43,973 bases of DNA, from the IMG/VR virus record IMGVR_UViG_3300028898_000020; one strand, 5' to 3'. Below, one piece after another: positions 2,675 to 40,556 of this stretch. The position numbers and the translations under genes are program-made. The notes under the pieces are model-generated. The model was not told the origin of the DNA. It saw only the letters and a list, made by a program, of their open reading frames with translations, and did not search any database. Position 1 is the stretch's first letter. Each line of letters begins with the position of its first letter. Source of the DNA: a virus.

Positions 2675-2898
2675 GCCTACTCCACGAAGCCATCATTGCC
2701 GAGAAGTACGGCCTGCGATTGACCGTCGATCAGATCGCCGACGCGCTGGGCCTGGCGCGCAATACCATCTACAACCAGATCGCACAGGGCACGTTCAGGG
2801 TCAAGACTTACGTTGACGGCGGGAAGCGCTATGCGGACTATCGGGACTTGGCTTCTTACCTGGATGAAGTGAGCGGTCGTGTAAAGACTCCGGCTTGA
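2671..2898 (+). CDS. Excisionase / AlpA-PrtN-type HTH DNA-binding protein
   Basis: 75 aa, GTGA-coupled start. HTH LTVDQIADALGLARNTIYNQIAQGTF followed by GKRYADYRDLASYLD. Convergent with int. Confidence 0.65.
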   Translation: MSLLHEAIIAEKYGLRLTVDQIADALGLARNTIYNQIAQGTFRVKTYVDGGKRYADYRDLASYLDEVSGRVKTPA

Positions 2899-3862
2899 TG
2901 TTGGTGTACCGCTTCAAATGCCGCCAGTCCTTATGCCCGCTCACCACCGCCACGTGTGGGATGTCGAATCCCTGTTCAAACATCGCGCTGATACCCTCGT
3001 GCCTCAGATCGTGAAGGTGTAGGTCTGGGATGGCCAGCGCCTTGCACGCTTCGGTGAAATACTTGGTCATGGTCTGCGGGTGCACCGCAAACACGCGCTC
3101 ACCCTTGGGCTGGCGTTGCAGCACCGCCCACGACTCGCCCAGCAGCGGCACCCACTGATCGTTTCCGACTTTGGCGCGCGGGTCCTTGCGATCGCGGATC
3201 AGCACCATTTTCTTGACCGCGTCCACGTCGTCCCACAAGATGCGCGCCACCTCGCCCCGCCGCATGGCCGTGATGGCTCCGAACAGCGCAAAGTCGGCGT
3301 AGACCTTTCCCTTATGCTCGCCAAGCCATGCCAGAACGCGGGCGGACTCATCCTCTGTCGGCCGGCGCTCGCGCAGTCCGCCGCCACCGATCAGGCCAAA
3401 GTGCGACAGTTTCGGCCGCGCCGCGCCGATCACGTCGGGCAGGCCGTCGCCGGTGTAGCGCAGCACGGTCCCCAGCTTCGACAGATCGCAGTTGATGGTG
3501 TAGGGGCCTGCACCTTCATCGCGGCGCTGTTGAGCCCACCCGAGCAGATCGTCAACGGTCAGTTGCGCGGCCACCAGGTGGCCCAGGTTCTTGGTGAGCT
3601 GCTTGAGGGTGTAGTGCTCATTGGCCGAATCGCTGATCGGTCGCGTTTTAGACCGCAGCGCGCGGTACTTGGTTATCAGTTGACCGATGGTGTCGGTGCT
3701 GGCCTGTGTCGGAACAATCGCCCCGGAAACAATCTGCCCCTCAATGTCGCGCGCCCAGGCCGCCGCCTTGGACTTTGTGTCGAACCGTTTTGATATATCC
3801 TTGTGGCCCTTGCGACGGATCAGCGCCCGCCACTTGCCCTCGACGAATGAAATGCTCGCCAC
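2801..3862 (-). CDS. int: Tyrosine integrase
   Basis: 353 aa, GTG start. Catalytic pattern R (AMRRGE), HxxR (HLHDLRH), H...Y (GHKDWRHLKRYT). Confidence 0.9.
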   Translation of the reverse strand: MASISFVEGKWRALIRRKGHKDISKRFDTKSKAAAWARDIEGQIVSGAIVPTQASTDTIGQLITKYRALRSKTRPISDSANEHYTLKQLTKNLGHLVAAQLTVDDLLGWAQQRRDEGAGPYTINCDLSKLGTVLRYTGDGLPDVIGAARPKLSHFGLIGGGGLRERRPTEDESARVLAWLGEHKGKVYADFALFGAITAMRRGEVARILWDDVDAVKKMVLIRDRKDPRAKVGNDQWVPLLGESWAVLQRQPKGERVFAVHPQTMTKYFTEACKALAIPDLHLHDLRHEGISAMFEQGFDIPHVAVVSGHKDWRHLKRYTNIKPESLHDRSLHPGKKPSPDSPHSASRRQRKS

Positions 3863-4022
3863 GACTCACCCCCGACTCACCCCCGACTCAGCGCGGGAAG
3901 TTGTCGAAAGTGTACGCTAGTGGAAACCGAGGATAGAACAGGGCGATAATCCCCGCTCCCTCCTCGTAGTTCAATGGAGGGATTCAGAGGAGAGTAGCGC
4001 CTGGCGACTCACTTTCGACTCA
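3862..4022. repeat. Candidate attP: two clusters of 11-bp-phased CGACTCA repeats flanking an inverted repeat
   Basis: CGACTCA at 3862, 3873, 3884 and at 4005, 4016 (11-bp period, same orientation). The central segment contains the inverted repeat TCCCTCC-N12-GGAGGGA (3959-3984). Lies immediately upstream of int. Confidence 0.4.
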
Positions 4023-7487: not shown

Positions 7488-10400
7488 CTAGTGCGGCTCC
7501 TGGTAGCCGGTGAGAAGCGCCCCGTAGTTGGTGGTTTTGCCCTCGTTCAGCGCGTTGATGCCGGTCACCGTGCGGTTGATCTGGGCACTAGGCAAGCGCA
7601 GCAGTTCGCCGGCCACGTTGATCATGGCTTTGCGCAGGCCGTCGTCCATCTCGCCCTGGTGGATCTGTTTGCCCAGCTTGGCCAGGTCGGCAATCAGGCG
7701 CACCCCGGCCGGGCCGCTGTAATCGGTGGTGTACTGTGCCGTGCCCGTGGCGGCCTGTACGGCCCCGGTCACCTCGCGCACGCCGAACATCAGACCCATC
7801 AAAAAGCTCAGCTGCTCGCCGATCAGCTTTTTCAGGATCTTCTCCTCGTCCCAGTCGCCGGAATCGCCGGGCGTCATTGCGTCCTTGAGCAACGCGCCCA
7901 GGATGGCGGGGGCCGAGTACAGCAGGATGTAGTCGGCCCACAGCCGGGCCTTGCTTTCGGCGTTCATGGTGCGCTGTGCGCCCAGGTTCAAGGCGGTGTT
8001 GAAGAAGCTGTAAAACGTGGTGAACAGCTTGATGCCCGGGCCGCCGCGCTCGATGGCGCTCTGATCCTTGGTGCCGCCGCTGCCCTGCGCGTCGATCACG
8101 GCCTGGTCACTCAGCGCCACCGCGCGGGCTTCGTCGTTGCCCTCGCTGATGGCTTTCTCGTAGGCGCCCCACCAGGTCGGCACGTCGACCAGCTGCTGCG
8201 CGCGCATCATCAGGAAGTAAGCCGAGGCGTCAATGCCGGCGCGCACCTGGGTGCGGCCCTTGACTTGGCTTCGCACCTCGGCAATCTCGCGCAGCCGGGT
8301 GAGCGCGCGGGTGCGCATGAACTCCGACTTGCCGTTGATCTCTTCGACCGTGTCCAGCGGCGAGCCGATGGCCTTGGCGAGCCCCCGGCCCACCCACTTG
8401 GGACCGATGCGCACGATCGACTGGGTGATGCCCAGGGGCTGCATCATCGCCGACATGACGTTCAGGCCTAGGCCCGACACGCTCACGCCCTGGCGGATGT
8501 AGGCCAGCGCTTTCTCGCCGGCCGCCTGCGCGCCGCGGTCGCCGGTGGCGTTGTCCTCCAGCCACTTCTTGAACTGCTGGTGCGCGTCCGGCCCGTACTT
8601 GCTGCGCATCGCCTCGGCAATGTGCTTGTTTTTCACCAGCTTGTTGGCGTCGATCAGCCACTCGTGCCAGGTCAGATCATGAATAACCTCCTGCACGCCG
8701 TTGTATATGCCGTCCATGCTGTACAGCAGGGGCCGCCCGGTGACCTCCTCCACCCGGGCCTTGGTGAATGACCGCCGGGTGGTGGCGCTGGTGTACGCGC
8801 CGGCCAGCTGCTGCTTGGCGGCCTCGGCATCGGCGTGCGACTCGGCCCGCGCGCTGGCGCGGGGGTCGTATTTGATCGGGTAGTAGCCCCCACGCAGCTC
8901 GCCGTAGGGCGTGTGCACCGGGGTGGGTTCCACCCAGGCGGGCTCGCGGCCGTAGACCCGGGTCTCCTTGGCCGCAATGGCCGGCCGGTAGCTCTCGAAG
9001 TGGTCCCACACCGCTTGTACGAACTGCCAGTCGGTGGCGCTCAGGCTGTTGAGCACCGGCTGGATCTGCTCCAGGCTCCAGCTCTCGCCGCCCAGCAGGC
9101 GCTGCAGGTTGCTGGCGTTGCCGACGTTGAGCGCGATGGCCAGGCGTGCCTCTTTGTTCAGGCTGCGGTTGATGGTGGGGAAGAACTCACCCGCGCCGCC
9201 CAGCCGGCCCTCCTTGAGCACGGGCGCCACCAGCTTAGCCAGATCCTTGGTCGCCTTCTCGCGCATCGCCACCTCGGTGTCGCCGGCATGATTGGCCGTG
9301 CGAATCAGGTATTCCCACACCGGGCCGCCGTCCTTGCCGCCGTCCATCACGCGCGCCCAGGTGGCGGCCTTGATGTGGCTGGCCCAGAAGTTTTTGAGCC
9401 CCACCAGTTTTTCGCCCAGAATCGTGTTGGGCGTGCGGGTGTCGGCGTGGCGCCCCTTGCCGTGGGCGTAGATACTGGCGGTCATCTCGTCCACCACCGC
9501 CTGAAACTCGCGGTTGGCCTGCGACGTGAGCAGCCGATTCTTGAGCCGACCCAGGTGCTCGATCTGCTTGACGGTGTCGCGCAGGCCGCGCACCTCCTCG
9601 ACCGTCATGTCCTTGAACGACTTGCGGTTGGCTTCCTGCAGCAGCTCGGGCGGAATGTCGGGTTCCATTCCCTGCTCGACCTGCGACTGCACCCACTCGA
9701 CCAGGCTGGCGCGCCGGTCCAGGGTTTTCAGGCTGGTGCTGGCGCGCAGGTCAAAGCGCTCCAGCAGCGCCTCGATCTGTTGGCTGTACTCGGGGTCCAG
9801 GGTCTTGCTGGGCGTGTCGAACCGCTTGAAGTAGGCCACCGCCGCCTTGACCTCGTCCTGCGCGGCATAGGCCGCTTTGGTGGCGTACAGGTTGATCAGT
9901 TGATTGCGCTTGTGCAGGGCGGCCTGGGCCAGGTCGCCCGAGGCCTTGGCCGCCGCCTTGGCCGAGCGCACCTCGGCCGCCGCGTACTGCTTGGGCCGAA
10001 TGTCGCGCACCTTGAGCCTGGCGATGGTGGCCGCCGCGTATTCGCGCGCTGCCCGGGTCAGCACGTCAACCGTGCTCTTTTGCCCGGGCACCTGCTCGCG
10101 CACCGCCATGGATTTTTGCAAAGCCCGCAGCTCGGTGGCGACGAAGCGGGCGCGGGCATCGTTGTGAATGGCCGCATCCGCCGCGCGCTCCAGCCCGGCC
10201 GGGGTGGCCAGGTCGCCGTGCTCCTGCAGCATGCGGGTGTCGGTCATGCCCTCGATCACCGACTTGGGCGGCTCGGCCTCGGCCAGCTTCTTCACCAGCT
10301 CGTCACCTGAGGTGAAGCCGAACAGCTCGGCCACCAGATCAGGGTGCAGCCCGATCTCGTCGCTGGTCATGCGCAGCTCGGACAGCTTGCGCCACACCGC

Positions 10401-13400
10401 GCCGTCGGCGGTGCCGTACATATCGCGCAGCACTTGGGTGCGCAGCTTGCCCGCCCCGGCCTCTGGCATGTCGGGCAGATTGAGCGGGGCGTCACCGTAG
10501 GCCGCCGCCATGTCGCGCTTGATCGAGTACCGATCGGTGCCGCGTCGCTGGTCGTCGAACAGCGCCTCGAACTTCTCCGGGGAGAACTTACCGTGCTCGT
10601 CCGGCAGCAGGTAGCCCTCTTCCATCAGGCGATCGCCCATCGCGTCTACCGACAGGCCGCCAGTCTTGCGCACCACCGGCGCGCCAAAAACGCCGGATTC
10701 CAGGGCCTCTTTCTCGTTGATGCCCCACAGCCTCTTGACCTCGGCCCGATCCAGACCGCCCAACTTGGCGATGGCGGTGAACAAATTGTCCACCTCGGGA
10801 TTCAACCCCTTGGCGTTGCCCGACGGTTTCTCACCCGCCACCTTGTCGACGGAGCGGCTGGTCAGGAAAGCCCAGGCCCGGTAGATCGGCTGCGACATCA
10901 CCTCGGCGCGCACCTCGCGCCCGATCTGGACGCGCAGCGCGTCGTGCTGTTTCTGCAGCTCCTTGAGTTTGCGGCTTCGGGCGTTGTTGAGCCATTGCAT
11001 GTCGCGCAGGCCTCGCGCCTGCAGTTCGTCCACCGCGTCCATGGTGGCCTGGGTGCCCCGGTCGTGGTAGGCTTTGAACTCCTCCAGCGTCATGCCGGCC
11101 TGCTCGGCGCTCTGGAACAGCGGACCCATCGAGCGCGCGGCCTCGGCCTCGGCGATCTGGTCGCTGGTGGCCAGCATGCGGTCCATCACCGCGCGCACCT
11201 CGTCGGACAACTCGACCTTGAGTGCCCCGGCAACGTCGCCTTTGTTGGCCGTTACTGACTTGAGCAGGTTGCGGTAGACGTTGACCAGCCACGCCCGGAA
11301 CGTCTGAAACGCATGCTGCAGATCCAGGCTCGGGGCTTTGCCCTCGAAGGCGTAGGCCTCGAAGCCGCGTGCCCACTGTTCGTGATAGGGGCGCTTCTGG
11401 TCGGTCGTGAGGGAGGCCCAATGGTCCAGCGCTGACATCTCGGGGGTCGACTGCACCCCCATCCAGGCCAGCGTCTTGTTCATGTCATCCATGATCGAAC
11501 GCTCGCCCTCGCTGATCTGCTCCCCCTGGGCGACGCGGGTGGCGATGCGGCTGGCCAGATCGGCCTGCACTTCGAGGAAGAAGTGGCCGGACTCGTGCAC
11601 AAAAGAGCTTAAATCCGCATTGGATAACAGTGAAATGATCGAACGTGTTAAAGTAATGTCCGACCCAAACGCTATTTGGCCGCGAGCTTGCTGGTAGAAC
11701 GTGCCTTGTGTTGCGCCACCAAGTCCCGCGCCTGGTTCACCCTGCTCGCGATGTATTGACTCCAAAACAGATCGTCGTGCATCCGCTCCCGATAGAAGGG
11801 AATTGAAGATAGCAGCTCTTTGTAGAGTGGTGCGGCCTGCCTGTCCAGCTCCCGCCGCTCTTCCATCGAAGCCAAGCATTTCGGACAGCTCCGCATTGCT
11901 TTGAACACGCCCGTCCCCGTCAACAAATGATTGTGTTGCAGGGTCGAAGTGGAAGAGGCTTGTGGCATTGGGGTTTGCGTGTTCGGTGGCCGCGACCGAC
12001 ACGTCCACCATGGCCCTGATATTACCCAAGGTATCGCCGTCTGTCCACTTGAGCGGGGGCACCCCAATTTCAGCATTGCCCTCCAGCTGGGACGGGTGAG
12101 GCTCCAGAAAGTCGGTGCTGCCGTACTTGATGGCCGCCGAGAGCATGTTCTCCAGCCGACGCCGCATGGCCGCCGCGCTCACGCCAAGGGGGTCGCCGAC
12201 GAACTTCAACCCGTTGTTGAAAGCGTAGTTCGCCGCCAGGTCATACACCGCGCTGCCGCCGTTGCCCTCGCCCACCGCCGACACATTGATGTGAACGCGG
12301 CCGCCGTCGTTGGTCAGCGTGGCGTGCTTGCCGGTGGGCAGCGTGACAATCCACGAATGCGTGGTCGCGCTCTCGTCCGGGGTGGTGTTGGCCAGCATCC
12401 AGACCTCGGGGTCGGCACTGTTGCGATCCACCTCGCTGACCGTCAAGCCCTTGGCCGCGCCGATGTCGCGCACGTCCAGTGCCTGCGATTTGGGGTATTG
12501 GTACAGGCTGTCCAGCTTGCCCAGCTCCAGCAGCACGCGCGAGATCCCCAGCTTGGGGTCGGCATAGTCCACCTCGGCGGTGGATTGGTTCATGATGTTG
12601 CCGCTGTTGTCGAAGGTGCCCCGGTTAAACACGCTCTTGATATTGGCCGGGTTCCATACGTTCAGGGCGTTCTCGTAGTGGTCGTCGCGCACCCCGGCGA
12701 CGCCTTCGGCTTCGGCCGTCTTGCGCGCGGCGTCCCAGTTGCCGCCAGCGTCCTGTACCCGTTGGCTCCAATCGGCATGGCTGATGTATTTGCCCCGGAC
12801 GTACACCGGCATCAGGTGCTCGCCGCCCTTGCCGTCGCCGTCATAGAGGCTTGCGGCCTCGGCGTCCAGACCCAAGTACACGCCGGGCCCGATCAGCCCC
12901 GACTTACTGGCCTTGAACGTGGTGAAATTCTTGTTGGTGCCGTGGTATAGCACCATCGGCTGGCCCTGCTCGTCGAGCATGTTGCTGTCGCCGAACCACT
13001 TTTTGAACGCCGGGGTGTCGGTCACCAGCTTGCCGGCCTGGTCGTACTGATCCATCACCTGCGCCCCCGCCGACTCCTTGGCCGAGAACCCAAGGCGGTA
13101 CACGTCGGCGAACTGCTGCACCGTCATGCCGGTGCGCGCCGCCATTACGGCATAGAAGCTGGCCGCCAGCTCGGCGTATCGCTCGTTCACCTGGGCGGTG
13201 AAGCGTTTCAGTTCGGTGAGCTGGGTCAGGATCTGGGCCTGCACCTGGTCGCGCCCGGCCTTGAACTCGGCGTCGTTCTCGCGCTGGGCCATCACGCGCT
13301 CGACCTCGGCCTGGATGTCGTTGCCCTTCTCTTGCATGTAGGACTGGGCCTCGATGCGACTCATGCCGGTCACGTCGGTGCGGGCGTTGTCGACCAGCGC

Positions 13401-14777
13401 CTGGGCGTATTCGTTGCCGATCGCCCCGGTCAGCAGCTCGCCGGTGGGCACCACCAGGTCGCCACCAGATTCGACCTGGTCGAGCTGGGCCGCGATGCTG
13501 GGCACCGTCTGGGCCAGGGCCTGCAGATCCACGCCGGCCTCGACCAGCTTGGCGCTATCCAGGTAGATGTTGGGCGTGCCCTCGTCGGCCAGCTCCTGCA
13601 TGTAGGCGCGCAGGGTCTCGGGGCTGCGTTCCAGCAGCTTGCTGGCCTCGGCGGTCTTGATCACCTGCTCCAGCACCTTGGCGTGCGCTTCGGCTCGCTG
13701 CGCTGCGCTGTCGTCTTTTTGCTCCTGACCCATCAGCCGCTGCGCGCCCTTGACGGCCCCAATCTGCACGCTTCCACCGACCAGGGTGGCAATGGCGGTC
13801 TCTGCCAGCGCGGCCGGCTGTTCGGCCAGGAAGTCGCCTACCGACTTGTTCGGGTTGAGGTGAGTCCACTGGTTGAAGTTCTGCCACAGGGTGGCGGCCA
13901 TCTCGCCGGGCACTTCCTTGGACACCTCGTACATGAACAGTTTGCCCGCTGACGCACTGGCCTTGACGTTCTTCAAGAAGCCCGCCGCGCCCAGATACTT
14001 CTCGGTCACGATTTCGGCGGTGCCATCCTCGATGCCGTAGGCAGTGGCCTGGTAGGGATTGAGCCCGGCTTCGCGGCCCTTGGCGTAGGACTGCCCGCCT
14101 GTGATCACGCCCATCAGGCCCAGCATGGCCTGCTCACCAGTCATTCTGGTGGCGTTGGCCAGGCCCACCGGCAGCATCGCCAGGTTCTGCCCGGCGGAGC
14201 GCATCCCTGACATGAAGCCGCGCTCTGCCAGGCCCGCGTCAGGGTCGACGCCGGAAACCGAATCGGCCGCCCGGCTGGCGCTTTTGCTCTGGTCGCGCAG
14301 GAAGCCCCCGATGGTATCCAGGCCCAGCATCTCAAACGGCGACGCCGCCGCACCGTAAGCGCCCGCCCCGAAGCTGGGCACGCCTGACGCCAAACCCCGT
14401 GCCGCCTTGGCAACATCGGTCAGCGCGCCGCCTCGGGGTGCGGTGGGCGCGCTGGTGAGGTAGCGCAGGCCCGCTTCCAGCGCGCCCATGTTGTCCAGAT
14501 CGTCGTGCGCCACCCGGGCGTTATTCATGTCGGCGGCCAGCCAGCCGCGCAGCTTGGGGGCCTGCTCCAGGCCGGCCAGGCTGTCCTCCACCTTGGCGCG
14601 AGTCTCGTAGTCGGGTTTGAATTCGTCGATCACGCCGGGCGGCAAGCCGTAGCGCTGGGCCAACTGGGTGCTGCGCGCGGCCGCGTCTGGGTTGGCCTCG
14701 ATTCCAAAGCGCAGGTTCAGCCCCGCGCGCTGCTTGTCGCTGGCGCCATCGTCCAGCAGGTCGGCATAGTCACCCAT
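7488..14777 (-). CDS. Giant internal-virion / ejection polyvalent protein (ART-like + zincin HExxH domains)
   Basis: 2,429 aa in the gp16-like position. VLYHGTNKNFTTFK..GPGVYLG..YENALNVW (about 12618-13025) fits an H-Y-E ADP-ribosyltransferase-like domain. FVHESGHFFLEV (about 11581-11607) is an HExxH metallopeptidase motif. The C-terminus is hydrophobic. Confidence 0.85.
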   Translation of the reverse strand: MGDYADLLDDGASDKQRAGLNLRFGIEANPDAAARSTQLAQRYGLPPGVIDEFKPDYETRAKVEDSLAGLEQAPKLRGWLAADMNNARVAHDDLDNMGALEAGLRYLTSAPTAPRGGALTDVAKAARGLASGVPSFGAGAYGAAASPFEMLGLDTIGGFLRDQSKSASRAADSVSGVDPDAGLAERGFMSGMRSAGQNLAMLPVGLANATRMTGEQAMLGLMGVITGGQSYAKGREAGLNPYQATAYGIEDGTAEIVTEKYLGAAGFLKNVKASASAGKLFMYEVSKEVPGEMAATLWQNFNQWTHLNPNKSVGDFLAEQPAALAETAIATLVGGSVQIGAVKGAQRLMGQEQKDDSAAQRAEAHAKVLEQVIKTAEASKLLERSPETLRAYMQELADEGTPNIYLDSAKLVEAGVDLQALAQTVPSIAAQLDQVESGGDLVVPTGELLTGAIGNEYAQALVDNARTDVTGMSRIEAQSYMQEKGNDIQAEVERVMAQRENDAEFKAGRDQVQAQILTQLTELKRFTAQVNERYAELAASFYAVMAARTGMTVQQFADVYRLGFSAKESAGAQVMDQYDQAGKLVTDTPAFKKWFGDSNMLDEQGQPMVLYHGTNKNFTTFKASKSGLIGPGVYLGLDAEAASLYDGDGKGGEHLMPVYVRGKYISHADWSQRVQDAGGNWDAARKTAEAEGVAGVRDDHYENALNVWNPANIKSVFNRGTFDNSGNIMNQSTAEVDYADPKLGISRVLLELGKLDSLYQYPKSQALDVRDIGAAKGLTVSEVDRNSADPEVWMLANTTPDESATTHSWIVTLPTGKHATLTNDGGRVHINVSAVGEGNGGSAVYDLAANYAFNNGLKFVGDPLGVSAAAMRRRLENMLSAAIKYGSTDFLEPHPSQLEGNAEIGVPPLKWTDGDTLGNIRAMVDVSVAATEHANPNATSLFHFDPATQSFVDGDGRVQSNAELSEMLGFDGRAAGAGQAGRTTLQRAAIFNSLLSGADARRSVLESIHREQGEPGAGLGGATQGTFYQQARGQIAFGSDITLTRSIISLLSNADLSSFVHESGHFFLEVQADLASRIATRVAQGEQISEGERSIMDDMNKTLAWMGVQSTPEMSALDHWASLTTDQKRPYHEQWARGFEAYAFEGKAPSLDLQHAFQTFRAWLVNVYRNLLKSVTANKGDVAGALKVELSDEVRAVMDRMLATSDQIAEAEAARSMGPLFQSAEQAGMTLEEFKAYHDRGTQATMDAVDELQARGLRDMQWLNNARSRKLKELQKQHDALRVQIGREVRAEVMSQPIYRAWAFLTSRSVDKVAGEKPSGNAKGLNPEVDNLFTAIAKLGGLDRAEVKRLWGINEKEALESGVFGAPVVRKTGGLSVDAMGDRLMEEGYLLPDEHGKFSPEKFEALFDDQRRGTDRYSIKRDMAAAYGDAPLNLPDMPEAGAGKLRTQVLRDMYGTADGAVWRKLSELRMTSDEIGLHPDLVAELFGFTSGDELVKKLAEAEPPKSVIEGMTDTRMLQEHGDLATPAGLERAADAAIHNDARARFVATELRALQKSMAVREQVPGQKSTVDVLTRAAREYAAATIARLKVRDIRPKQYAAAEVRSAKAAAKASGDLAQAALHKRNQLINLYATKAAYAAQDEVKAAVAYFKRFDTPSKTLDPEYSQQIEALLERFDLRASTSLKTLDRRASLVEWVQSQVEQGMEPDIPPELLQEANRKSFKDMTVEEVRGLRDTVKQIEHLGRLKNRLLTSQANREFQAVVDEMTASIYAHGKGRHADTRTPNTILGEKLVGLKNFWASHIKAATWARVMDGGKDGGPVWEYLIRTANHAGDTEVAMREKATKDLAKLVAPVLKEGRLGGAGEFFPTINRSLNKEARLAIALNVGNASNLQRLLGGESWSLEQIQPVLNSLSATDWQFVQAVWDHFESYRPAIAAKETRVYGREPAWVEPTPVHTPYGELRGGYYPIKYDPRASARAESHADAEAAKQQLAGAYTSATTRRSFTKARVEEVTGRPLLYSMDGIYNGVQEVIHDLTWHEWLIDANKLVKNKHIAEAMRSKYGPDAHQQFKKWLEDNATGDRGAQAAGEKALAYIRQGVSVSGLGLNVMSAMMQPLGITQSIVRIGPKWVGRGLAKAIGSPLDTVEEINGKSEFMRTRALTRLREIAEVRSQVKGRTQVRAGIDASAYFLMMRAQQLVDVPTWWGAYEKAISEGNDEARAVALSDQAVIDAQGSGGTKDQSAIERGGPGIKLFTTFYSFFNTALNLGAQRTMNAESKARLWADYILLYSAPAILGALLKDAMTPGDSGDWDEEKILKKLIGEQLSFLMGLMFGVREVTGAVQAATGTAQYTTDYSGPAGVRLIADLAKLGKQIHQGEMDDGLRKAMINVAGELLRLPSAQINRTVTGINALNEGKTTNYGALLTGYQEPH

Positions 14778-34304: not shown

Positions 34305-34972
34305 GTGCGCTCCTGGTGCTCGCGGTTGATGCGGTTGACTTGGCGGGTAATCGCGCCCTTAAGCTGGACCAGCTTGGCCAGCTCCGGGCTCTTGTTGCGT
34401 GGGTGGTTGCGCCGGGCGTGCTCGGCCCGGTCGATGCATTCGAGAATGTCGGCGGTGATGTCGGCCAGCACCGTGGTGCGCTTGCCCGGTTTGAACACCA
34501 CGATGTGCCCGGTCGGGATCGGGCCGTGCGCGGCTTCCCACACCAGACGGTGCACCGCGTGCCAGCGCAGATTGCTCGGTCCGGGCACGTCGGCCACCTT
34601 GAGGTCCAGATAGCCTTCGCCGTTGATGCGGTAGCTGCCCACCGGCACCCAGGTCTGCGGGCGGTTACCGGGTCTGAATTGGGTACGCTCCACGCCCGGG
34701 GCTGACCAGCCCTTGAGGCCCTTGTTCCAGGGTGTGAATCCCGGGGTGAACTGGTGTCGCACCATGCTAGGCGACGTGCGCCCACGCTGGATCCGGCTCG
34801 ACAAATCGCTGGCGTAGAACGCTGCGCTCTTGGTGATGCCGTAGCGCGCCGCTGTCTGGTGCACCGGCCCGACCGGGCGCCCCAGCAAGGCCGCCACGTC
34901 GGCGGCCGGCACGTCCGGGTACAGCTCGCGCAGCAAGGCCAGCTCGGTGGCGGACCACTTGCGCACGGTCAC
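34301..34972 (-). CDS. HNH_3/AP2-like DNA-binding protein (possibly catalytically degenerate HNH)
   Basis: 223 aa. GYLDLKV..WHAVHRLVWEAAHGPIPTGHIVVFK resembles the phage HNH_3 core, but canonical H-N-H residues are not evident. Confidence 0.5.
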   Translation of the reverse strand: MTVRKWSATELALLRELYPDVPAADVAALLGRPVGPVHQTAARYGITKSAAFYASDLSSRIQRGRTSPSMVRHQFTPGFTPWNKGLKGWSAPGVERTQFRPGNRPQTWVPVGSYRINGEGYLDLKVADVPGPSNLRWHAVHRLVWEAAHGPIPTGHIVVFKPGKRTTVLADITADILECIDRAEHARRNHPRNKSPELAKLVQLKGAITRQVNRINREHQERT

Positions 34973-35190
34973 GCCGGCACCTCGGCCGTGTATCGCTCCG
35001 GGTACAAGATCTGCATCTCGGTCACCTCGTGGCCGTAGTAGCGCGCCAGCCGCTCGGCCAGCTTGGGGCTGGCTTGCTGCTTGGCGTTTTCGATGCGCGA
35101 CAGATTGCCGGTGTTGGTCTCGACGGCCTGCGCCACCTCGGCCAGGGTGCCGTGGCGACGCAGACGGGTTTGTTTCAGCGGAGTGGTCAT
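34969..35190 (-). CDS. Cro-like XRE-family HTH regulator
   Basis: ATG 35190 with an AAGGA RBS spaced 8 nt upstream (ACCCCCAC lies between AAGGA and the ATG); the ORF track begins at GTG 35214. HTH GTLAEVAQAVETNTGNLSRIENAKQ. Divergent from the repressor gene. Confidence 0.75.
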   Translation of the reverse strand: MTTPLKQTRLRRHGTLAEVAQAVETNTGNLSRIENAKQQASPKLAERLARYYGHEVTEMQILYPERYTAEVPA

Positions 35191-35216
35191 GGTGGGGGTT
35201 TCCTTTGAGGCCACCT

Positions 35217-35246
35217 AATGTTGCCTCAATCGCAACTTACTGTCAA
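35217..35246 (-). promoter_or_regulatory. Leftward early promoter (TTGACA-N18-AACATT)
   Basis: On the minus strand the -35 TTGACA lies at 35241-35246 and the -10 AACATT at 35217-35222. The operator at 35221-35235 lies between and over them. Confidence 0.55.
35221..35235. promoter_or_regulatory. Operator TTGCCTCAATCGCAA (TTGC-N7-GCAA)
   Basis: 15-bp dyad. Its reverse complement TTGCGATTGAGGCAA matches 36462-36476 at 14/15 positions. Confidence 0.6.
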
Positions 35247-35266
35247 TAAATCACTTAATTTCTTGC

Positions 35267-35281
35267 TTGCGTTTCTCGCAA
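35267..35281. promoter_or_regulatory. Operator TTGCGTTTCTCGCAA (TTGC-N7-GCAA)
   Basis: Second dyad of the same class, 21-35 nt upstream of the repressor GTG start. Confidence 0.5.
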
Positions 35282-35301
35282 GTTAGACTAAAAATGCTGC
35301 G

Positions 35302-36006
35302 GTGAAAGAAACAAACGTCCACCCCTCCTCCGCAGAGATCGGCGCCGCGATTCGGCGCATTCGACTCCGCAAGCGCTTGACCTTGGCCCAGGTGGGCGCC
35401 CTCATGGGGGCGACGACAGGCAGTGCGAAGAGCAGCCTATCCAAGGTGGAAACCGCGAAGCAAGGCTACACGGGCGAATTCCTCCGAAAAGTTGCCGAAG
35501 CTCTCGGCGTGACCGAAATCGACATCTACCTGGAAGCGAGCGGCGAGATCGAACAGGGACCAGAAATCAAGGGCACCGTGCCCCTTATCTCCTGGGTGCA
35601 AGCCGGGCATTGGCAAGACATCCCACAGGAAGACCATCACCACACCGGGAATGAAAGTTCTGGCCGAACGCAGGCCCGCGAGCCCCACGTGCCCTACCAC
35701 GCCGGTGAACGGGTGCATACCACGTATCGGGCACGCAAAAACACTTACGCCTTGCGGGTGCGCGGCGACAGCATGGAACCAAAATTCCCCGACGGAGCAA
35801 TCCTCATTGTCGAACCTGACGAGAACCCCGAACCCGGCGCGTTCGTAATCGTTCGGCACAACGGAGGTGAAGCCACCTTCAAGCAGCTCATGCAAGACGG
35901 CGGCACCAGATACCTGAAACCACTGAACCCTAGATACCCCATCCTTGAGGTGAAGCCGGACGCCGTCTTTTGCGGCGTGGTCAAGCGAGTGGAGATGGAC
36001 GTGTGA
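35302..36006 (+). CDS. CI-like repressor (XRE HTH + S24 LexA-like autopeptidase)
   Basis: 234 aa, GTG start. HTH LTLAQVGALMGATTGSAKSSLSKVETAKQ; peptidase ALRVRGDSMEP ... ATFKQL (Ser/Lys dyad). Confidence 0.9.
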   Translation: MKETNVHPSSAEIGAAIRRIRLRKRLTLAQVGALMGATTGSAKSSLSKVETAKQGYTGEFLRKVAEALGVTEIDIYLEASGEIEQGPEIKGTVPLISWVQAGHWQDIPQEDHHHTGNESSGRTQAREPHVPYHAGERVHTTYRARKNTYALRVRGDSMEPKFPDGAILIVEPDENPEPGAFVIVRHNGGEATFKQLMQDGGTRYLKPLNPRYPILEVKPDAVFCGVVKRVEMDV

Positions 36007-36305
36007 TGGAAGCGCTTGAACTTCTTCTGAGCTTCGGTGTTACTTGGGTGGTGATCCTCGTTCCGCCAGCGTTGATTCGGGCAGTTCGTCGCAAGCCCCT
36101 GGTGAAAAAGACCGCCGCGTGGACCTGTTTTTTCCTGTACTTCGCCGAGGTGATATTTTTCGAGGCCCTGGGTAGTCAAAGCAAATCCCACTTGGCGGTG
36201 CTGGTAGGGGCCTTCGCTAGCTATCACGTGCTGCGGTGGCAATCCACAGCTTCCGCCCGCCGCGCTGTTGCCGAGCAGCGCAGGGCGCTAGGGTACGACG
36301 ACTAG
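36006..36305 (+). CDS. Small 3-TM membrane protein co-transcribed with the repressor (candidate superinfection-exclusion factor)
   Basis: ATG 36006 overlaps the repressor stop (TGATG); 99 aa. Three hydrophobic helices; followed by a terminator. Confidence 0.6.
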   Translation: MEALELLLSFGVTWVVILVPPALIRAVRRKPLVKKTAAWTCFFLYFAEVIFFEALGSQSKSHLAVLVGAFASYHVLRWQSTASARRAVAEQRRALGYDD

Positions 36306-36329
36306 ACATTTTCCTCCCCGTTCCGCTTC

Positions 36330-36352
36330 AGCCCGCCCCGTGCGGGCTTTTT
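36330..36352 (+). terminator. Intrinsic terminator of the immunity cassette
   Basis: AGCCCGC-CCCGT-GCGGGCT hairpin followed by a T-run (TTTTT, the first T shared with the stem). Confidence 0.7.
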
Positions 36353-36421
36353 CACGACGCGCCAATAGCTCTTAGCTATCGTAGCAGCTTCACGATTAAA
36401 ACAAATGTGCGTTTGTTTCTG

Positions 36422-36451
36422 TTGACGCAACTTCTTGGTTTCCGCTACATT
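36422..36451 (+). promoter_or_regulatory. Rightward early promoter (TTGACG-N18-TACATT)
   Basis: -35 at 36422-36427, -10 at 36446-36451. AT-richer context; the AAGGAG RBS of the first gene lies downstream. Confidence 0.55.
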
Positions 36452-36461
36452 AGCTTCAATG

Positions 36462-36476
36462 TTGCGATTGAAGCAA
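36462..36476. promoter_or_regulatory. Operator TTGCGATTGAAGCAA (TTGC-N7-GCAA)
   Basis: Lies just downstream of the -10. The extended match GTTGCGATTGA[G/A]GCAACA is shared (17/18) with the leftward promoter. Confidence 0.6.
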
Positions 36477-36502
36477 CAAATATTCAAACCAAGGAGTGAC
36501 AG

Positions 36503-37645
36503 ATGCCAAAAGTCAAAGTCCCGCCGCCCAGCGCCGCCGTTACCGCTGTCGAGCCCGCACCCGCCGAGCCAACCCCTCCCGCACCGGCAACAGTCGTCGC
36601 CTACAAGGGCTTCGACAAAGACCTCAGGTGCCGGGGCTATCAGTACGAGATCGGCAAGACGCACACGCACGACGGCCCGGTCAAGCACTGCAAGTCCGGT
36701 TTTCACGCCTGCGAAAACCCGCTCGACATGTTCGACTACTACGCGCCAGGCACCAGCCGATACGGCGAAGTGGAGATGGGCGGCGACATCAGCCGGGAGA
36801 CAGACGACGACACGAAGATCGCCAGCGCCAGCATCACCGTCAAGGTCGAAATCGGCGTGCCGGTCATCGTTGCAAGAGCGATTGAGTGGATCACCGCACT
36901 GTGCAATCCCTCCGACGAACAACACGCCACGGGCGACCGGTCGGCCAGCTCGGCCACGGGCGACCGGTCGGCCAGCTCGGCCACGGGCGACCGGTCGGCC
37001 AGCTCGGCCACGGGCTACCGGTCGGCCAGCTCGGCCACGGGCTACCAGTCGGCCAGCTCGGCCACGGGCGACCAGTCGGCCAGCTCGGCCACGGGCGACC
37101 GGTCGGCCAGCTCGGCCACGGGCGACCGGTCGGCCAGCTCGGCCACGGGCTACCAGTCGGCCAGCTCGGCCACGGGCGACCGGTCGGCCAGCTCGGCCAC
37201 GGGCTACCAGTCGGCCAGCTCGGCCACGGGCGACCAGTCGGCCAGCTCGGCCACGGGCTACCAGTCGGCCAGCTCGGCCACGGGCGACCAGTCGGCCAGC
37301 TCGGCCACGGGCTACCAGTCGGCCAGCTCGGCCACGGGCGACCGGTCGGCCAGCTCGGCCACGGGCTACCGGTCGGCCAGCTCGGCCACGGGCTACCGGT
37401 CGGCCAGCTCGGCCACGGGCTACCAGTCGGCCAGCTCGGCCACGGGCGATAGCGCAGTAGCGCTCAATGTTGGAGTGCTCGGCAAAGCGCGGGCTTCCGA
37501 AGGCGGGGCGATCGTTCTGTGCGCTCACGATGACGACGGCAAGCTGCTCCACATCCGCGCGTCCAAGGTGGGTGACAACGGCATCAAGCCCGACGTCTTC
37601 TACACGCTGAGCCAGACCGGCGAATTCGTCGAGGTGGCCGAATGA
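36503..37645 (+). CDS. Tandem-nonapeptide-repeat protein (DUF7666-like N- and C-terminal domains, from memory)
   Basis: 380 aa, AAGGAG RBS. N-domain YKGFDKDLRCRGYQYEIGKTHTH..CKSGFHACENPLDMFDYY. 19 repeats of ATG[D/Y][R/Q]SASS. C-domain DNGIKPDVFYTLSQTGEFVEV. Confidence 0.85.
   Translation: MPKVKVPPPSAAVTAVEPAPAEPTPPAPATVVAYKGFDKDLRCRGYQYEIGKTHTHDGPVKHCKSGFHACENPLDMFDYYAPGTSRYGEVEMGGDISRETDDDTKIASASITVKVEIGVPVIVARAIEWITALCNPSDEQHATGDRSASSATGDRSASSATGDRSASSATGYRSASSATGYQSASSATGDQSASSATGDRSASSATGDRSASSATGYQSASSATGDRSASSATGYQSASSATGDQSASSATGYQSASSATGDQSASSATGYQSASSATGDRSASSATGYRSASSATGYRSASSATGYQSASSATGDSAVALNVGVLGKARASEGGAIVLCAHDDDGKLLHIRASKVGDNGIKPDVFYTLSQTGEFVEVAE
36926..37450 (+). repeat. 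27-bp tandem repeat, 19.4 copies, in frame
   Basis: Unit GCCACGGGC[G/T]ACC[G/A]GTCGGCCAGCTCG. Copies are identical apart from the two bracketed positions. Confidence 0.95.
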
Positions 37646-38055
37646 CCCAATTCGCAATTCTCAGCAACGAGGAACTGGTCCGCCACGCGGATCTGGCCCT
37701 CGACCCGCTCACCTCGACCGACCTGGAGCGCGAGCTGCTGCGCCGCTTCGAAACCCTGGTGGGGGAGAACGGTCTGGCCGCCGCCGCGCTGGATGTTCTC
37801 GACGACTTCAACTTCGACGTGACCAAGACCGAGGGCGTCGAACAGATCCGCGACAGCCTGCAGTTCGCTGCCGACTTCAACCACAAGAGCTATCGCCCGC
37901 TGCTCGACGCCCTCGTCGATCACGACATCGACACGGCCGCCGCGCTGATCAAGCGCCTCGAACTGGCCACCGCTTTCGAATCCATCGCCAACGACGCAGG
38001 CGACGCTATCGCCCGCCTGCAGGACCTGATCACTTCCACCACCACCACCAACTGA
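37642..38055 (+). CDS. Hypothetical acidic protein
   Basis: 137 aa, ATGA-coupled. Confidence 0.6.
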   Translation: MTQFAILSNEELVRHADLALDPLTSTDLERELLRRFETLVGENGLAAAALDVLDDFNFDVTKTEGVEQIRDSLQFAADFNHKSYRPLLDALVDHDIDTAAALIKRLELATAFESIANDAGDAIARLQDLITSTTTTN

Positions 38056-38064
38056 AAGGCAACC

Positions 38065-38538
38065 ATGAGTCTCGAAGCCACCCTCGAAGCACACAGCACC
38101 GCGCTGCAAGAAAACACCGCCACCCTGCGCGATCTGCTCGCCGCCTGGAACAAACTGGCCGCCAACGCCAACAAGGTCACCGCCGACCAGATCGCCGAGA
38201 AGGGTCTCAACGCGGGCGGCGTGCCGATCGTCCCCCCAAAGCCGAAGGCCGAGGCCTCGGCGACCAAGGCCACCCCCACCCCCAAGGTGGCACCTGCTGC
38301 GGCTTCCCAACCGCCGGCGACCGCCGCTGCCTCGCCTGCCTCAAAGCCCGAGGATACGAGCCCCGCCGCTCCCGTCACGTATGACGACGTGCGCGCCCTG
38401 GTCGTCAAGGTCTCGCGCACCAAGGGCGAGGACGTGGCCCGCGCGGTGCTCACCGGCCTGGGCGTTGCCAAGGCGCCCGCCCTGACGCCCGAGCAGTACC
38501 CCGAGGCGGTGGCGCAACTCCAGGCAGCGCTGGCATGA
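38065..38538 (+). CDS. Hypothetical protein with Pro/Ala-rich linker
   Basis: 157 aa, upstream of and coupled to the nuclease gene. Confidence 0.6.
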
Positions 38539-39815
38539 GCGAGCACGCCCGCCTCTCCCCGTCATCCGCCCACAGGTGGATGGCGTGTCCCGGCTCGGTG
38601 CTGCTGGAGATGTCTAAGCCCGACACCTCCAGCGAGTTCGCCGACGAGGGCACCGCAGCCCACACCCTGGCCGCCATGTGCCTCACCGAGGGCACCGACG
38701 CCGCGGCCTACCTGGGCCGCATCATCCCGGCCGGCGAGCGCGAGTTCACGGTCGACGAGGACATGGCCGGCCACGTGCAGACCTACATCGACGCCATCCG
38801 CGCCCAGGTGCAAGGTGGCGACCTGATGGTCGAGCAGCGCGTGGAGTTCTCGGGCTACGTCGACGTGGCCGACCAGTTCGGCACTGCTGACGTGGTCATC
38901 GTCAGCCAGCAGGCCGACCACCTCAAGGTGTTCGACCTCAAGTACGGCCAGGGCGTGCGCGTCGATGCCTTCGAGGTGCTGGGCCCTTGCGACGGCACCA
39001 GCACTGCCGCCCCGGTGATGGGACCGAACCCCCAGCTCGCGCTGTACGCGCTGGGCGCGCTCGACAAGTTCTCGATGCTGGGCGACTTCGAGCGGGTTGT
39101 CATCGGCGTGCACCAGCCCCGGCTGGACCACGTCAGCGAGCACGTCCTCGACGTGGCCGAGCTGCTGGCCTTTGGCGAGAAGGCCAAAACCGCCGCGCGC
39201 AAGGCCATGGACATCGTCGACACCGGCATCTGGGGTCCCGAGGACCTGGTGCCGGGCGAGACGCAATGCAAGTTCTGCAAGGCCAAAGCCACCTGCCCCA
39301 AGCTCACGGCCGAAGTCGCTGCCACGGTTGCGGGTGACGCCACCGCCGACGACTTCGACGTGATCATCGACGGCCAGGACATCGCAGTGCGCGCGCCCGA
39401 GGATCTGGGCTACTTCATGGCCCGCGTCGACCTTGTCGAACAGTGGTGCAAGGCCGTGCGCGCCGAGACCGAGCGCCGCCTGCTCGCCGGCATCCCCGTG
39501 GCCGGGTGGAAGCTGGTACAGGGCAAGAAGGGCAACCGCCAGTGGGCCGACGCCAAGGCCGCCGAGGACATGCTCAAAACCATGCGGGTCAAGCACGAAG
39601 AGATGTACGACTACTCGGTGATCAGCCCCACCAGCGCTGAGAAGCTGTGGAAAGCCAAGATCATCGGCCCGCGCCAGTGGCCCACGCTGCAGGGCCTGAT
39701 CGTCCAGAGCAACGGCAAGCCCAGCGTGGCGCCGGAGTCCGACAAGCGCCCGGCCCTGCAGCTCGCCACCGCCGACGACTTCGACGCCATCGAAGCGGGG
39801 GCCGATCTTGTCTGA
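38535..39815 (+). CDS. PD-(D/E)XK RecB/Cas4-like exonuclease (DUF2800-type)
   Basis: 426 aa. [24 protein letters not shown], and the Cys cluster [11 protein letters not shown]. Confidence 0.8.
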
Positions 39816-40011
39816 CACCGCCCCGCCCCAACCAGGCCGCCCACCGGTGAGCGAACACCTGCCCCCACAGGCGCGGTGGCGCCTGGTGCGCGCGGCCCAG
39901 ACCCCCATCACGGACGACGACCCGCTGGCCCGCGTCCGTGCCGTCAACGAGGCCAGCACCCTCGCCCGACTCCAACACCCCGAACTTTTCAAGAAAGAAG
40001 ACGCATCATGA
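39808..40011 (+). CDS. Hypothetical protein
   Basis: 67 aa; TTG start overlapping the upstream 3' end; stop overlaps the next ATG. Confidence 0.4.
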
Positions 40012-40556
40012 AACTCAAGCTCACCAACGTCCGCCTGGCATTCCCCAAGCTGTTCGTGGCCAAGGCCGCAGAGGCCGGCGGCAATCCCACTTACGGCGCC
40101 GCGTTCCTGATCGAACCCGACGATGCCCAGCTCAAGGGTATCAACCTGGCCATGGACGCCGTCGCCGCCGAGAAGTGGGGCACCAAGGCCCCCGGCATCG
40201 TTGCGCTGCTGCGCAAGACCGACAAGATGGCCCTGCACGACGGCGACCTCAAAGCGCAATACGCCGGCTTCCCCGGAATGATGTTCGTGTCCACCAACAG
40301 CGCCACCCGCCCGGTGGTGATCGACACCGACAAGACCCCGCTCACGGCCGAGGACGGCAAGCCCTACGGCGGCTGTTACGTCAACGCCACGGTGGAGTTC
40401 TGGGCGCAGGACAACAAGTTCGGCAAGCGCGTGAACGCGCAGCTGCTGGGCGTGCAGTTCTTCCGCGACGGCGACAGCTTCGGTGGTGGCAGCGTCGGCA
40501 GCGTCGATGACTTCGACGACCTGGCCGAAGGCGCCGCCGAGGACTCGCTGGTCTGA
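40008..40556 (+). CDS. Phage ssDNA-binding protein (DUF2815-type)
   Basis: ATG 40008; 182 aa. [17 protein letters not shown]-terminus and acidic tail VDDFDDLAEGAAEDSLV. Confidence 0.75.
   Translation: MKLKLTNVRLAFPKLFVAKAAEAGGNPTYGAAFLIEPDDAQLKGINLAMDAVAAEKWGTKAPGIVALLRKTDKMALHDGDLKAQYAGFPGMMFVSTNSATRPVVIDTDKTPLTAEDGKPYGGCYVNATVEFWAQDNKFGKRVNAQLLGVQFFRDGDSFGGGSVGSVDDFDDLAEGAAEDSLV

Follow-up and report, generated by a model that had tools for sequence, protein, structure and literature searches.

We analysed a 43,973-nt stretch of viral DNA, IMG/VR record IMGVR_UViG_3300028898_000020 (hereafter the window, at its full length), and in it a gene at 36503-37645 whose product carries a long tandem array of nine-residue units. 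A first-pass annotation, made from the sequence alone, had supposed that the repeats of the phage family to which this protein belongs are usually degenerate. Our main result is that this premise is wrong: variation is carried by the same two residues of the unit in 70/70 genomic arrays, and the arrays of phages ES18, YA3 and phi2 are near-perfect or perfect. As nucleotide-perfect units varying at just two residues are the rule in the family, the array in the window is typical and not exceptional, and it is the family-wide architecture that is of interest. We found no description of this architecture in the searchable literature, which leaves out most subscription journals.

Array variation is confined to two residues across the family

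Among 120 homologous proteins (1,469 units), the fraction of minority residues within a protein's own array is 0.47 and 0.45 at the two positions that follow the invariant Thr-Gly; none of the remaining seven positions exceeds 0.03. The 70 genomic arrays, whose variation lies in the same two residues, come from 70 species of many phyla. At the nucleotide level, everything outside the two variable codons is identical in the arrays of phages YA3 (27 complete units) and phi2 (15 units), and one additional synonymous site varies in the array of ES18 gp53. An array from a Bacilli genome reaches 50 units with the scaffold codons identical in 50/50 and three diresidue types only. The array of Acinetobacter phage fLi-Aba02 is looser, the scaffold consensus being matched in 11/14 units. 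Overall, copy number in the family spans 1-2 to 50 units.

The diresidue alphabet is narrow, and similar from Bacillota to Proteobacteria. The first variable position is D, Y or N, all encoded by NAC codons; His, the fourth NAC codon and the same single-base change away, is found in just 7/1,469 units. At the second position, R, Q, Y, W, S, N, K and C are used. Pairs of two aromatic residues are nearly absent; DY is seen and YY is not, and NW and DW are seen and YW is not. Most proteins carry four to five diresidue types and none of the 120 carries a single one. The heterogeneity is maintained: every array examined, in the 120 proteins as in the 70 genomic arrays, keeps variation.

Two side observations touch on this pattern. 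Rare relatives (five proteins) have a period of eight residues, with units such as GSAAAG[DYS]x and SALTGG[DSYN]x; their N- and C-terminal domains are those of the other members, and their variable pair follows a Gly. In Rhodoplanes elegans, a single scaffold (NZ_NHSK01000074.1) carries two copies of the gene ~63 kb apart, which agree in unit number (8 complete units), scaffold consensus and variation counts; the pair could be two related prophages or a duplication.

The array and its gene in the window

Tandem Repeats Finder reported one strong array, at 36926-37449 (period 27, 19.4 copies, score 922). Splitting 36926-37450 into 27-mers gave 19 complete units followed by 12 nt, GCCACGGGCGAT. 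The only variable nucleotides of the unit are position 10 (G in 10 units, T in 9) and position 14 (G in 10, A in 9), and the scaffold codons are identical in 19/19 units. Four unit types are present, DR (seven times), YQ (six), YR (three) and DQ (three), in the order DR DR DR YR YQ DQ DR DR YQ DR YQ DQ YQ DQ YQ DR YR YR YQ. The extent of the array, its 19.4 copies, the two variable positions, the type counts and the unit order agree exactly with what the first-pass annotation had read; the alternation of YQ and DQ that it described is real, as a Y/D alternation in units 9-16, but local.

A degenerate form of the 27-mer, with up to 3 mismatches allowed, occurs 19 times, always within the array and nowhere else in the window, with 0 occurrences expected by chance. 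This bears on the possibility that a diversity-generating retroelement, or another targeted mutator, writes the variable positions. The phage is BPP-1-like, BPP-1 being the classical phage with such a retroelement, and the variation is indeed confined to defined codons. However, the unit has no second, template copy in the window; the 21 Pfam-scanned proteins, which are not every open reading frame (ORF), gave no reverse transcriptase match, no dedicated reverse-transcriptase search having been run; the changes are G/T and G/A and not adenine-specific; and the same pattern is found in unrelated phages. We regard the probability of such a mutator as negligible.

The repeat ORF, on the plus strand, is intact and encodes 380 aa; its translation carries the expected N- and C-terminal motifs around the ATG[D/Y][R/Q]SASS repeats. 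It is preceded by a ribosome-binding site (AAGGAG, 36491-36496) 6 nt 5' of the gene, its G+C content at third codon positions is 0.88, and its stop codon overlaps the next ATG (ATGA, 37642-37645), by which it is translationally coupled to a run of early genes. The long ORFs in other frames and on the minus strand over the array are by-products of the stop-free repeat. With a Kyte-Doolittle maximum of 1.72 (19-residue window), the protein has the looks of a cytoplasmic, three-part early-gene product, as far as its sequence tells. The net charge of the array is neutral, in the window and across the family, and we rejected on this ground, as unlikely, the idea of an acidic DNA mimic.

Members of a widespread, uncharacterised family

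Residues 31-123 of the repeat protein match Pfam DUF7666 (PF24703) at profile positions 1-93 of 95, with 120.3 bits where the gathering score is 27. Over its full length the protein matches phrog_4433 (E 2.7e-140), to which PHROGs assigns an unknown function, and the C-terminal 68 aa match it by themselves (E 2e-21). The flanking domains thus belong to a widespread uncharacterised phage family, as the first-pass annotation had proposed. A word-indexed search with the window protein returned at least 7,844 significant proteins, an exhaustive phmmer search with the N-domain gave 4,304 clusters (50% identity), and scanning a single genome for each species turned up 495 relatives, in Alpha-, Beta- and Gammaproteobacteria, Bacteroidota, Bacillota, Actinomycetota, Acidobacteriota and others. 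The family is among the commoner accessory genes of temperate phages.

The window protein has the DUF7666 domain, the full-length PHROG match, the diresidue-confined array and the cI-side place in an early operon, four features of the family. It is a new, typical member of a catalogued, uncharacterised family, and this copy is not exceptional. Among the matches listed, the best homologue is 71% identical and the nearest relatives range from 50 to 71%. An identical copy of the protein was not found among recorded proteins, and megablast of the gene against phages gave no match. Because of this distance to the best homologue and the lack of a phage megablast match, array variation was studied in other lineages. 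The DNA of ES18 gene 53 had no match in complete E. coli genomes, and the search for a solved relative by sequence returned none, its matches being low-complexity noise.

Family members carry the public labels 'c-type lectin precursor', '(putative) ADP-ribosyltransferase' and 'YdhT', of which the first two are unsupported. Membership among collagens was also rejected, as there is no Pfam match and the weak NCBIfam collagen-adhesin matches reflect periodic Gly only.

Concerted evolution and reshuffling of the units

The scaffold codons of the window array are ACG GGC .. .. TCG GCC AGC TCG GCC, those of fLi-Aba02 ACT GGC .. .. TCA GCA AGC TCT GCT. Between the two, 5/7 scaffold codons differ synonymously and 0 non-synonymously, and switches between TCN and AGY serine codons occur between other lineages. 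Codons that are identical within arrays and synonymously different between lineages indicate concerted evolution acting on a peptide under purifying selection.

The same comparison bears on the idea that the repeats act at the DNA level, as iterons, a recombination hotspot or an array of binding sites, with the reading frame incidental. The iterons of the lambda origin sit inside gene O, and the array in the window adjoins recombination and replication genes. Nevertheless, it is the peptide scaffold that is conserved across phyla and not the DNA, and in every case the frame is open and continues into two conserved domains. The synonymous divergence between lineages rules out a purely DNA-level role, and we consider this explanation very improbable.

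Unit number and order change between close relatives. In fifteen groups, the proteins have 100% identical flanks yet differ in both, some by plain insertions or deletions of units, as in an Acinetobacter series of 11-14 units, and lengths of the protein within a species change in steps of 9 residues. YA3 and Flu_PA14 are one case: the gene flanks are identical at 388/390 and 204/204 nt and the downstream DNA at 1498/1500 nt, whereas the arrays, of 28 and 27 units, have unrelated orders and internal multi-unit duplications in each. The relatives thereby lend support to the suggestion of the first-pass annotation that concerted evolution and recombination alter copy number and unit order. Within arrays, the order of the units is near random, the lag-2 autocorrelation of the diresidues being weak (z ~3).

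Two published observations, of changes in laboratory lineages, may concern the same process. Phage STMP18 has a 27-bp insertion relative to ES18; the paper gives no location, and the insertion may lie in gene 53 (PMC10307801). In an evolution experiment with Serratia symbiotica, clone LT-05 lost 54 bp (2 x 27) in frame from 'ydhT_1', a gene of 1,413 nt, at position 782,372 of the CWBI-GFP chromosome, within a mitomycin-inducible prophage (PMC12505973). This clone resists phage LASφ and is free of the lipopolysaccharide mutations of the other resistant clones, its only other mutation being dam_4 R137H (PMC12505973). If 'ydhT_1' is a member of the family, the deletion may be a functional lead for it.

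Many public contigs, and several Pseudomonas phage records described as complete, start or end inside arrays of this kind, which indicates that such arrays routinely break short-read assemblies; the caution about assembly voiced in the first-pass annotation is thus well founded, and arrays of this kind also invite mis-annotation. For the window, it follows that the copy number, the unit order or both could be an artefact of assembly while the array itself is real, short reads being unable to order a 525-bp array with four unit types. The gene is, however, in frame with both conserved ends, and similar arrays are found in the Sanger-sequenced ES18 (AY736146) and in assemblies with long-read-looking contig names, one with 31 units and the other being the Bacilli array of 50. 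We take an artefact in the window to be unlikely, if well worth keeping in mind, and the conclusions at the family level are unaffected by it.

Predicted structure of the array

AlphaFold2, run for the window protein with a 121-sequence alignment, gave a model with a mean predicted local distance difference test (pLDDT) score of 78.5 (N-domain >90, array 66-77, C-domain 85-93). The model of a Salmonella homologue reached 86.3, with 80-86 in the array. In both models, the array is built from 7-residue strands (second variable residue-S-A-S-S-A-T) and 2-residue turns (Gly plus the first variable residue), a pattern that places the variable residues at the strand-turn junction. Foldseek against solved structures found no significant match for either model (best E 1.7 and 0.5). 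The top-ranked neighbours, though not significant, are all parallel β-helices: the CARP domain of CAP, autotransporter passengers, tailspikes and an RTX block (6sus). Together with the lag-2 signal, these neighbours point to a solenoid of flattened shape in which two nonapeptides make up each coil and the diresidues form ladders along two edges. On the strength of these models, the array is probably a β-solenoid with no solved relative.

The likeness to β-solenoid proteins drawn in the first-pass annotation is in line with the predicted fold, at the moderate confidence of the AlphaFold models; the tie to ice-nucleation proteins is a mere analogy, with a period of 9 and not 16 and no Pfam match. 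In the N-domain, the conserved columns of the 121-sequence alignment are Cys43, Cys63, Gly-Phe-His68, Cys70 and Glu71, and from this pattern the conserved Cys/His residues may form a metal site.

The early operon and its control

The coordinates of the repeat gene and of the features around it are collected in Table 1.

Table 1. Repeat gene, control elements and neighbouring genes in the window
Feature	Coordinates	Strand	Evidence
Coding sequence, 380 aa, DUF7666 / PHROG 4433 member; N-domain, nonapeptide array and C-terminal domain	36503..37645	+	Intact ORF; PF24703 E 5e-35, phrog_4433
N-terminal DUF7666 domain (aa 31-123); conserved Cys43, Cys63, Gly-Phe-His68, Cys70, Glu71	36593..36871	+	Pfam, 121-sequence alignment, AlphaFold pLDDT >90
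Array, 19 complete 27-bp units + 12 nt; protein register T-G-[D/Y]-[R/Q]-S-A-S-S-A	36926..37450	+	Tandem Repeats Finder, 27-mer split
Conserved C-terminal domain: degenerate last coils plus ...HIRASKVGDNGIKPDVFYTL..GEFVEV	37451..37642	+	phrog_27197 and phrog_4433 matches; pLDDT 85-93
Sigma-70-type promoter-like site TTGACG-18-TACATT	36422..36451	+	Only such site in 34800-38200; 0.5 expected
Operator-like 18-mer GTTGCGATTGAAGCAACA, 10 nt past the -10 hexamer	36461..36478	+	17/18 match to 35219-35236 minus strand
Twin operator-like site in the divergent cI / Cro-like intergenic region	35219..35236	-	17/18 match to 36461-36478
Terminator hairpin and T-run closing the upstream cI / membrane-ORF unit	36330..36352	+	AGCCCGC-CCCGU-GCGGGCU then UUUUU
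cI-like repressor, helix-turn-helix + S24 peptidase; same strand as the repeat gene	35302..36006	+	Pfam Peptidase_S24 E 5e-26, HTH_31
Cro-like helix-turn-helix protein, 81 aa, divergent from cI	34969..35214	-	Pfam HTH_31, HTH_3
Remainder of the early operon: 137-aa and 157-aa ORFs, DUF2800/PD-(D/E)XK nuclease, Enc34-type single-stranded-DNA-binding protein	37642..40556	+	Start/stop codons of neighbours overlap

The candidate operator motif is partially palindromic, with the core TGTTGC-N6-GCAACA, and has exactly two copies in the 44-kb window against 0.06 expected. As it is common to the cI/cro region and to the site just past the promoter, the repeat gene appears to head a repressor-controlled early operon on the cI side. 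This operon runs in the direction of cI and is thus PL-like, as in lambda. The first-pass annotation had put the gene directly under a rightward promoter: it is indeed the first gene behind the promoter with the candidate operator, and only the direction has to be revised. The terminator region upstream (60 nt) folds at -15.6 kcal/mol, with a z-score of -1.95.

A cI-side place in the early operon is also found in YA3, phi2, fLi-Aba02, Flu_PA14 and two uncultured or genomic relatives. Among genomic loci with sufficient upstream DNA, 22/67 have a cI-like gene upstream, on the strand of the repeat gene, and 0/67 have one downstream. The order in ES18 is PL, gene 24 (N), gp53, terminator, cIII, kil, erf. 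The equivalent slot of P22-like phages, from N to cIII, is occupied by ral, gene 17, sieB or the gene of a pentapeptide protein with perfect repeats, all of them accessory early genes for restriction, exclusion and host takeover. The early-operon slot of the family is one that holds anti-restriction and exclusion genes in model phages. As a side observation, this slot in Salmonella phage L (orf232 of ST64T; record L091, 2584-3123) encodes a pentapeptide-repeat protein with near-perfect (RGADL)n units, which makes a second kind of highly regular solenoid-repeat protein at this early-operon position.

A possible diversifying binding surface

Three marks of a recognition surface are combined in the family: units homogenised at the DNA level, a narrow two-residue 'code' across phyla, and differences between the arrays of phages that are identical in other respects. 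The reading that we prefer, tentatively and with the balance still tilted slightly against it, is that the diresidue ladders are a binding surface, that recombination diversifies it, and that the protein has a role in early phage-host or phage-phage conflict. In the protein, a stack of nonapeptide half-coils that can expand would stand between two conserved parts, the Cys/His N-domain (DUF7666) and the C-terminal domain. The stack would be a flattened β-solenoid with two units per coil, along whose edges the variable diresidues ladder to form a surface under diversifying or fluctuating selection. Recombination between identical units would serve as the diversifier, unit types being gained, lost and reshuffled with several always retained. 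Made first on derepression, from a PL-like promoter with a cI-type operator, the protein could serve anti-defence or host takeover through its binding to a cytoplasmic partner that is variable or polymeric, with the conserved end domains supplying an effector or anchoring function. If true, this would amount to a new molecular-recognition scaffold and a new player in phage-host conflict, and the hypothesis is open to simple phage genetics.

Several points weigh against this interpretation. Four P. aeruginosa proteins from complete chromosomes have one identical array despite slightly different flanks, and one exact protein was found on 14 contigs among the matches listed; such stable arrays in some lineages indicate that array change is episodic. 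Part of the shuffling seen in draft assemblies may be assembler noise. The near-random order of the units also fits a model where order is irrelevant. The neutral net charge of the array offers no obvious electrostatic mimicry, no PADLOC-DB model matches the repeat protein or five neighbours, and the PHROGs entry lists an unknown function. In addition, the pLDDT of the array is just 70-84, and a β-hairpin meander or an oligomeric β-helix are conceivable as alternative folds of the array.

Some of these points would equally suit the main rival explanation, in which the array is a length-variable structural rod or spacer between the N- and C-domains, the two positions are merely tolerated, and shuffling and copy-number change are neutral. 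Unit order is near random within arrays, copy number varies between 1-2 and 50 units, some arrays stay unchanged across many isolates, and no partner is known. Tolerated positions would, however, be expected to drift widely and often to homogenise, yet the alphabet stays narrow from Bacillota to Proteobacteria, His is nearly absent though mutationally adjacent, and 0 of the arrays examined are homogeneous. The residues used (Y, D, N, R, Q, W, S and K) are, moreover, typical of recognition surfaces. We therefore judge a neutral rod to be unlikely, while granting it appreciable weight.

Resemblance to known systems

The closest counterparts are ES18 gp53 and the hypothetical proteins of YA3 and phi2, which have the N-domain, the diresidue nonapeptide array, the C-domain and the cI-side early-operon position in common with the window protein. 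No qualitative difference separates them; the window protein has the scaffold SASSATG and uses only D/Y and R/Q. Compared with its nearest relatives, it has an extra Pro/Ala-rich N-terminal tail of 30 aa.

E. coli K-12 YdhT (b1669; record L092, 4748-5560) is homologous over the repeats and the C-terminal domain (BLASTP E 3e-10; NCBIfam PRK09946 E 5e-13), which explains why some pipelines name prophage members of the family 'YdhT'. It too repeats every 9 residues, with Gly keeping its place in the unit, but the repeats of YdhT are degenerate with hydrophobic core residues, and its N-terminus is another one, without DUF7666. YdhT is chromosomal, encoded by the last gene of the ydhYVWXUT operon, and is itself uncharacterised, with no Pfam family and no solved structure.

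Transcription activator-like (TAL) effectors offer an analogy of architecture only: their tandem units are near-identical at the DNA level, two adjacent residues vary, and recombination reshuffles them. Their units are, however, helical, of 33-35 residues, and read one DNA base per repeat, whereas the units in the window are predicted β-strands of 9 residues. The window protein has no Pfam match to the TAL_effector repeat and no sequence homology to it. Does the array nevertheless read sequence, as TALE, PUF or pentatricopeptide repeat (PPR) proteins do, with one diresidue per base or monomer of DNA or RNA? Near-identical units with a variable diresidue, an alphabet rich in base-contacting residues and non-random pairings (DY and not YY, NW and DW and not YW) would suit this idea. 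On the other hand, there is no homology to any nucleic-acid-binding repeat, the spacing of a β-ladder, ~4.8 Å per coil, is not known to match a nucleic-acid register, identical-flank alleles with unrelated orders would mean ever-changing targets, and the array is net neutral. Sequence reading in this strict sense is, in our estimate, quite improbable.

A wider version of our preferred reading, in which the surface is not only diversified but programmable, is one that we hold to be doubtful. The DUF7666 family would then be a phage-borne recognition system, the β-solenoid counterpart of TALE, PUF or variable-lymphocyte-receptor arrays, whose diresidue ladder specifies a polymeric or variable cytoplasmic target (nucleic acid, or a host or prophage immunity protein). 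Recombination of nucleotide-identical units would provide built-in diversification, and hence an early effector that could be quickly re-targeted, across phyla.

Other solenoid proteins share general features with the array. RTX β-rolls have the nonapeptide period and, as we infer for the array, two repeats per coil of a flattened β-solenoid; the unit in the window differs from theirs in its single Gly and in an Asp position that alternates with Tyr. The window protein has no Pfam HemolysinCabind match at E ≤10, and the GGxGxDxUx consensus, the calcium ligands and type I secretion are absent. Pentapeptide-repeat proteins, such as that of phage L, are also regular solenoid repeats and occupy the same N-to-cIII slot of lambdoid early-left operons, but their unit has 5 residues against 9 and there is no homology. 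The Pfam Pentapeptide family (A(D/N)LXX) is matched by the phage L protein and not by the window protein, and the phage L protein has no DUF7666 match in Pfam. Among the structural neighbours of the window model is a protein of a Rheinheimera phage that bears the name 'Pentapeptide'. Ice-nucleation and antifreeze β-solenoids likewise consist of regular repeats rich in Ser, Thr, Ala and Gly; ice-nucleation proteins have a 16-residue unit (AGYGSTxTAxxxSxLx) and are anchored in the outer membrane. The window protein has no match to Pfam Ice_nucleation, and a link to ice binding is not evident for a cytoplasmic early phage protein.

For the N-domain, a lead is T4 RIIB, a protector against exclusion by prophage Rex. 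Foldseek against BFVD gave three predicted RIIB structures as weak neighbours of this domain (E 2e-3 to 1e-2), and the motif C-x-x-G-[FL]-H-x-C is common to both, as CSRGLHVC at residues 251-258 of T4 RIIB (record L007, 1466-2404) and CKSGFHAC in DUF7666. The hhalign comparison of DUF7666 with RIIB gave E 0.004-0.006 and a probability of 6-9% over 33-35 columns around CxxG[FL]HxC, weak even with enlarged profiles. T4 RIIB has no DUF7666 match in Pfam and differs in having no repeat array, and we treat the link as a lead only.

Other features of the window

The window (1-43973) looks like a BPP-1-like temperate podovirus whose genome is complete or nearly so; the portal protein shares 67.7% identity with its counterpart in Bordetella phage BPP-1. 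Further products are an integrase (2801-3862, minus strand), a GH19 lysozyme, a nozzle protein, a protein of 2,429 aa (7488-14777, minus strand), a family-A DNA polymerase and a SNF2 helicase. We saw in the window no tRNA, no Rfam match and no retroelement of the BPP-1 type, no dedicated reverse-transcriptase search having been run.

A small ORF follows cI on the same strand (35970-36352) and is closed by the terminator; its probable start overlaps the cI stop near 36006. It gave no family match, and by eye it has three hydrophobic segments. By analogy, the arrangement recalls the cI-rexA-rexB layout of lambda and suggests a membrane protein expressed from the prophage, possibly one for exclusion. 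At the other end of the window, an 11-bp direct repeat (CGACTCACCCC x2.6) at 3862-3890 abuts the start of the integrase gene and may be an arm-type or attP-associated site.

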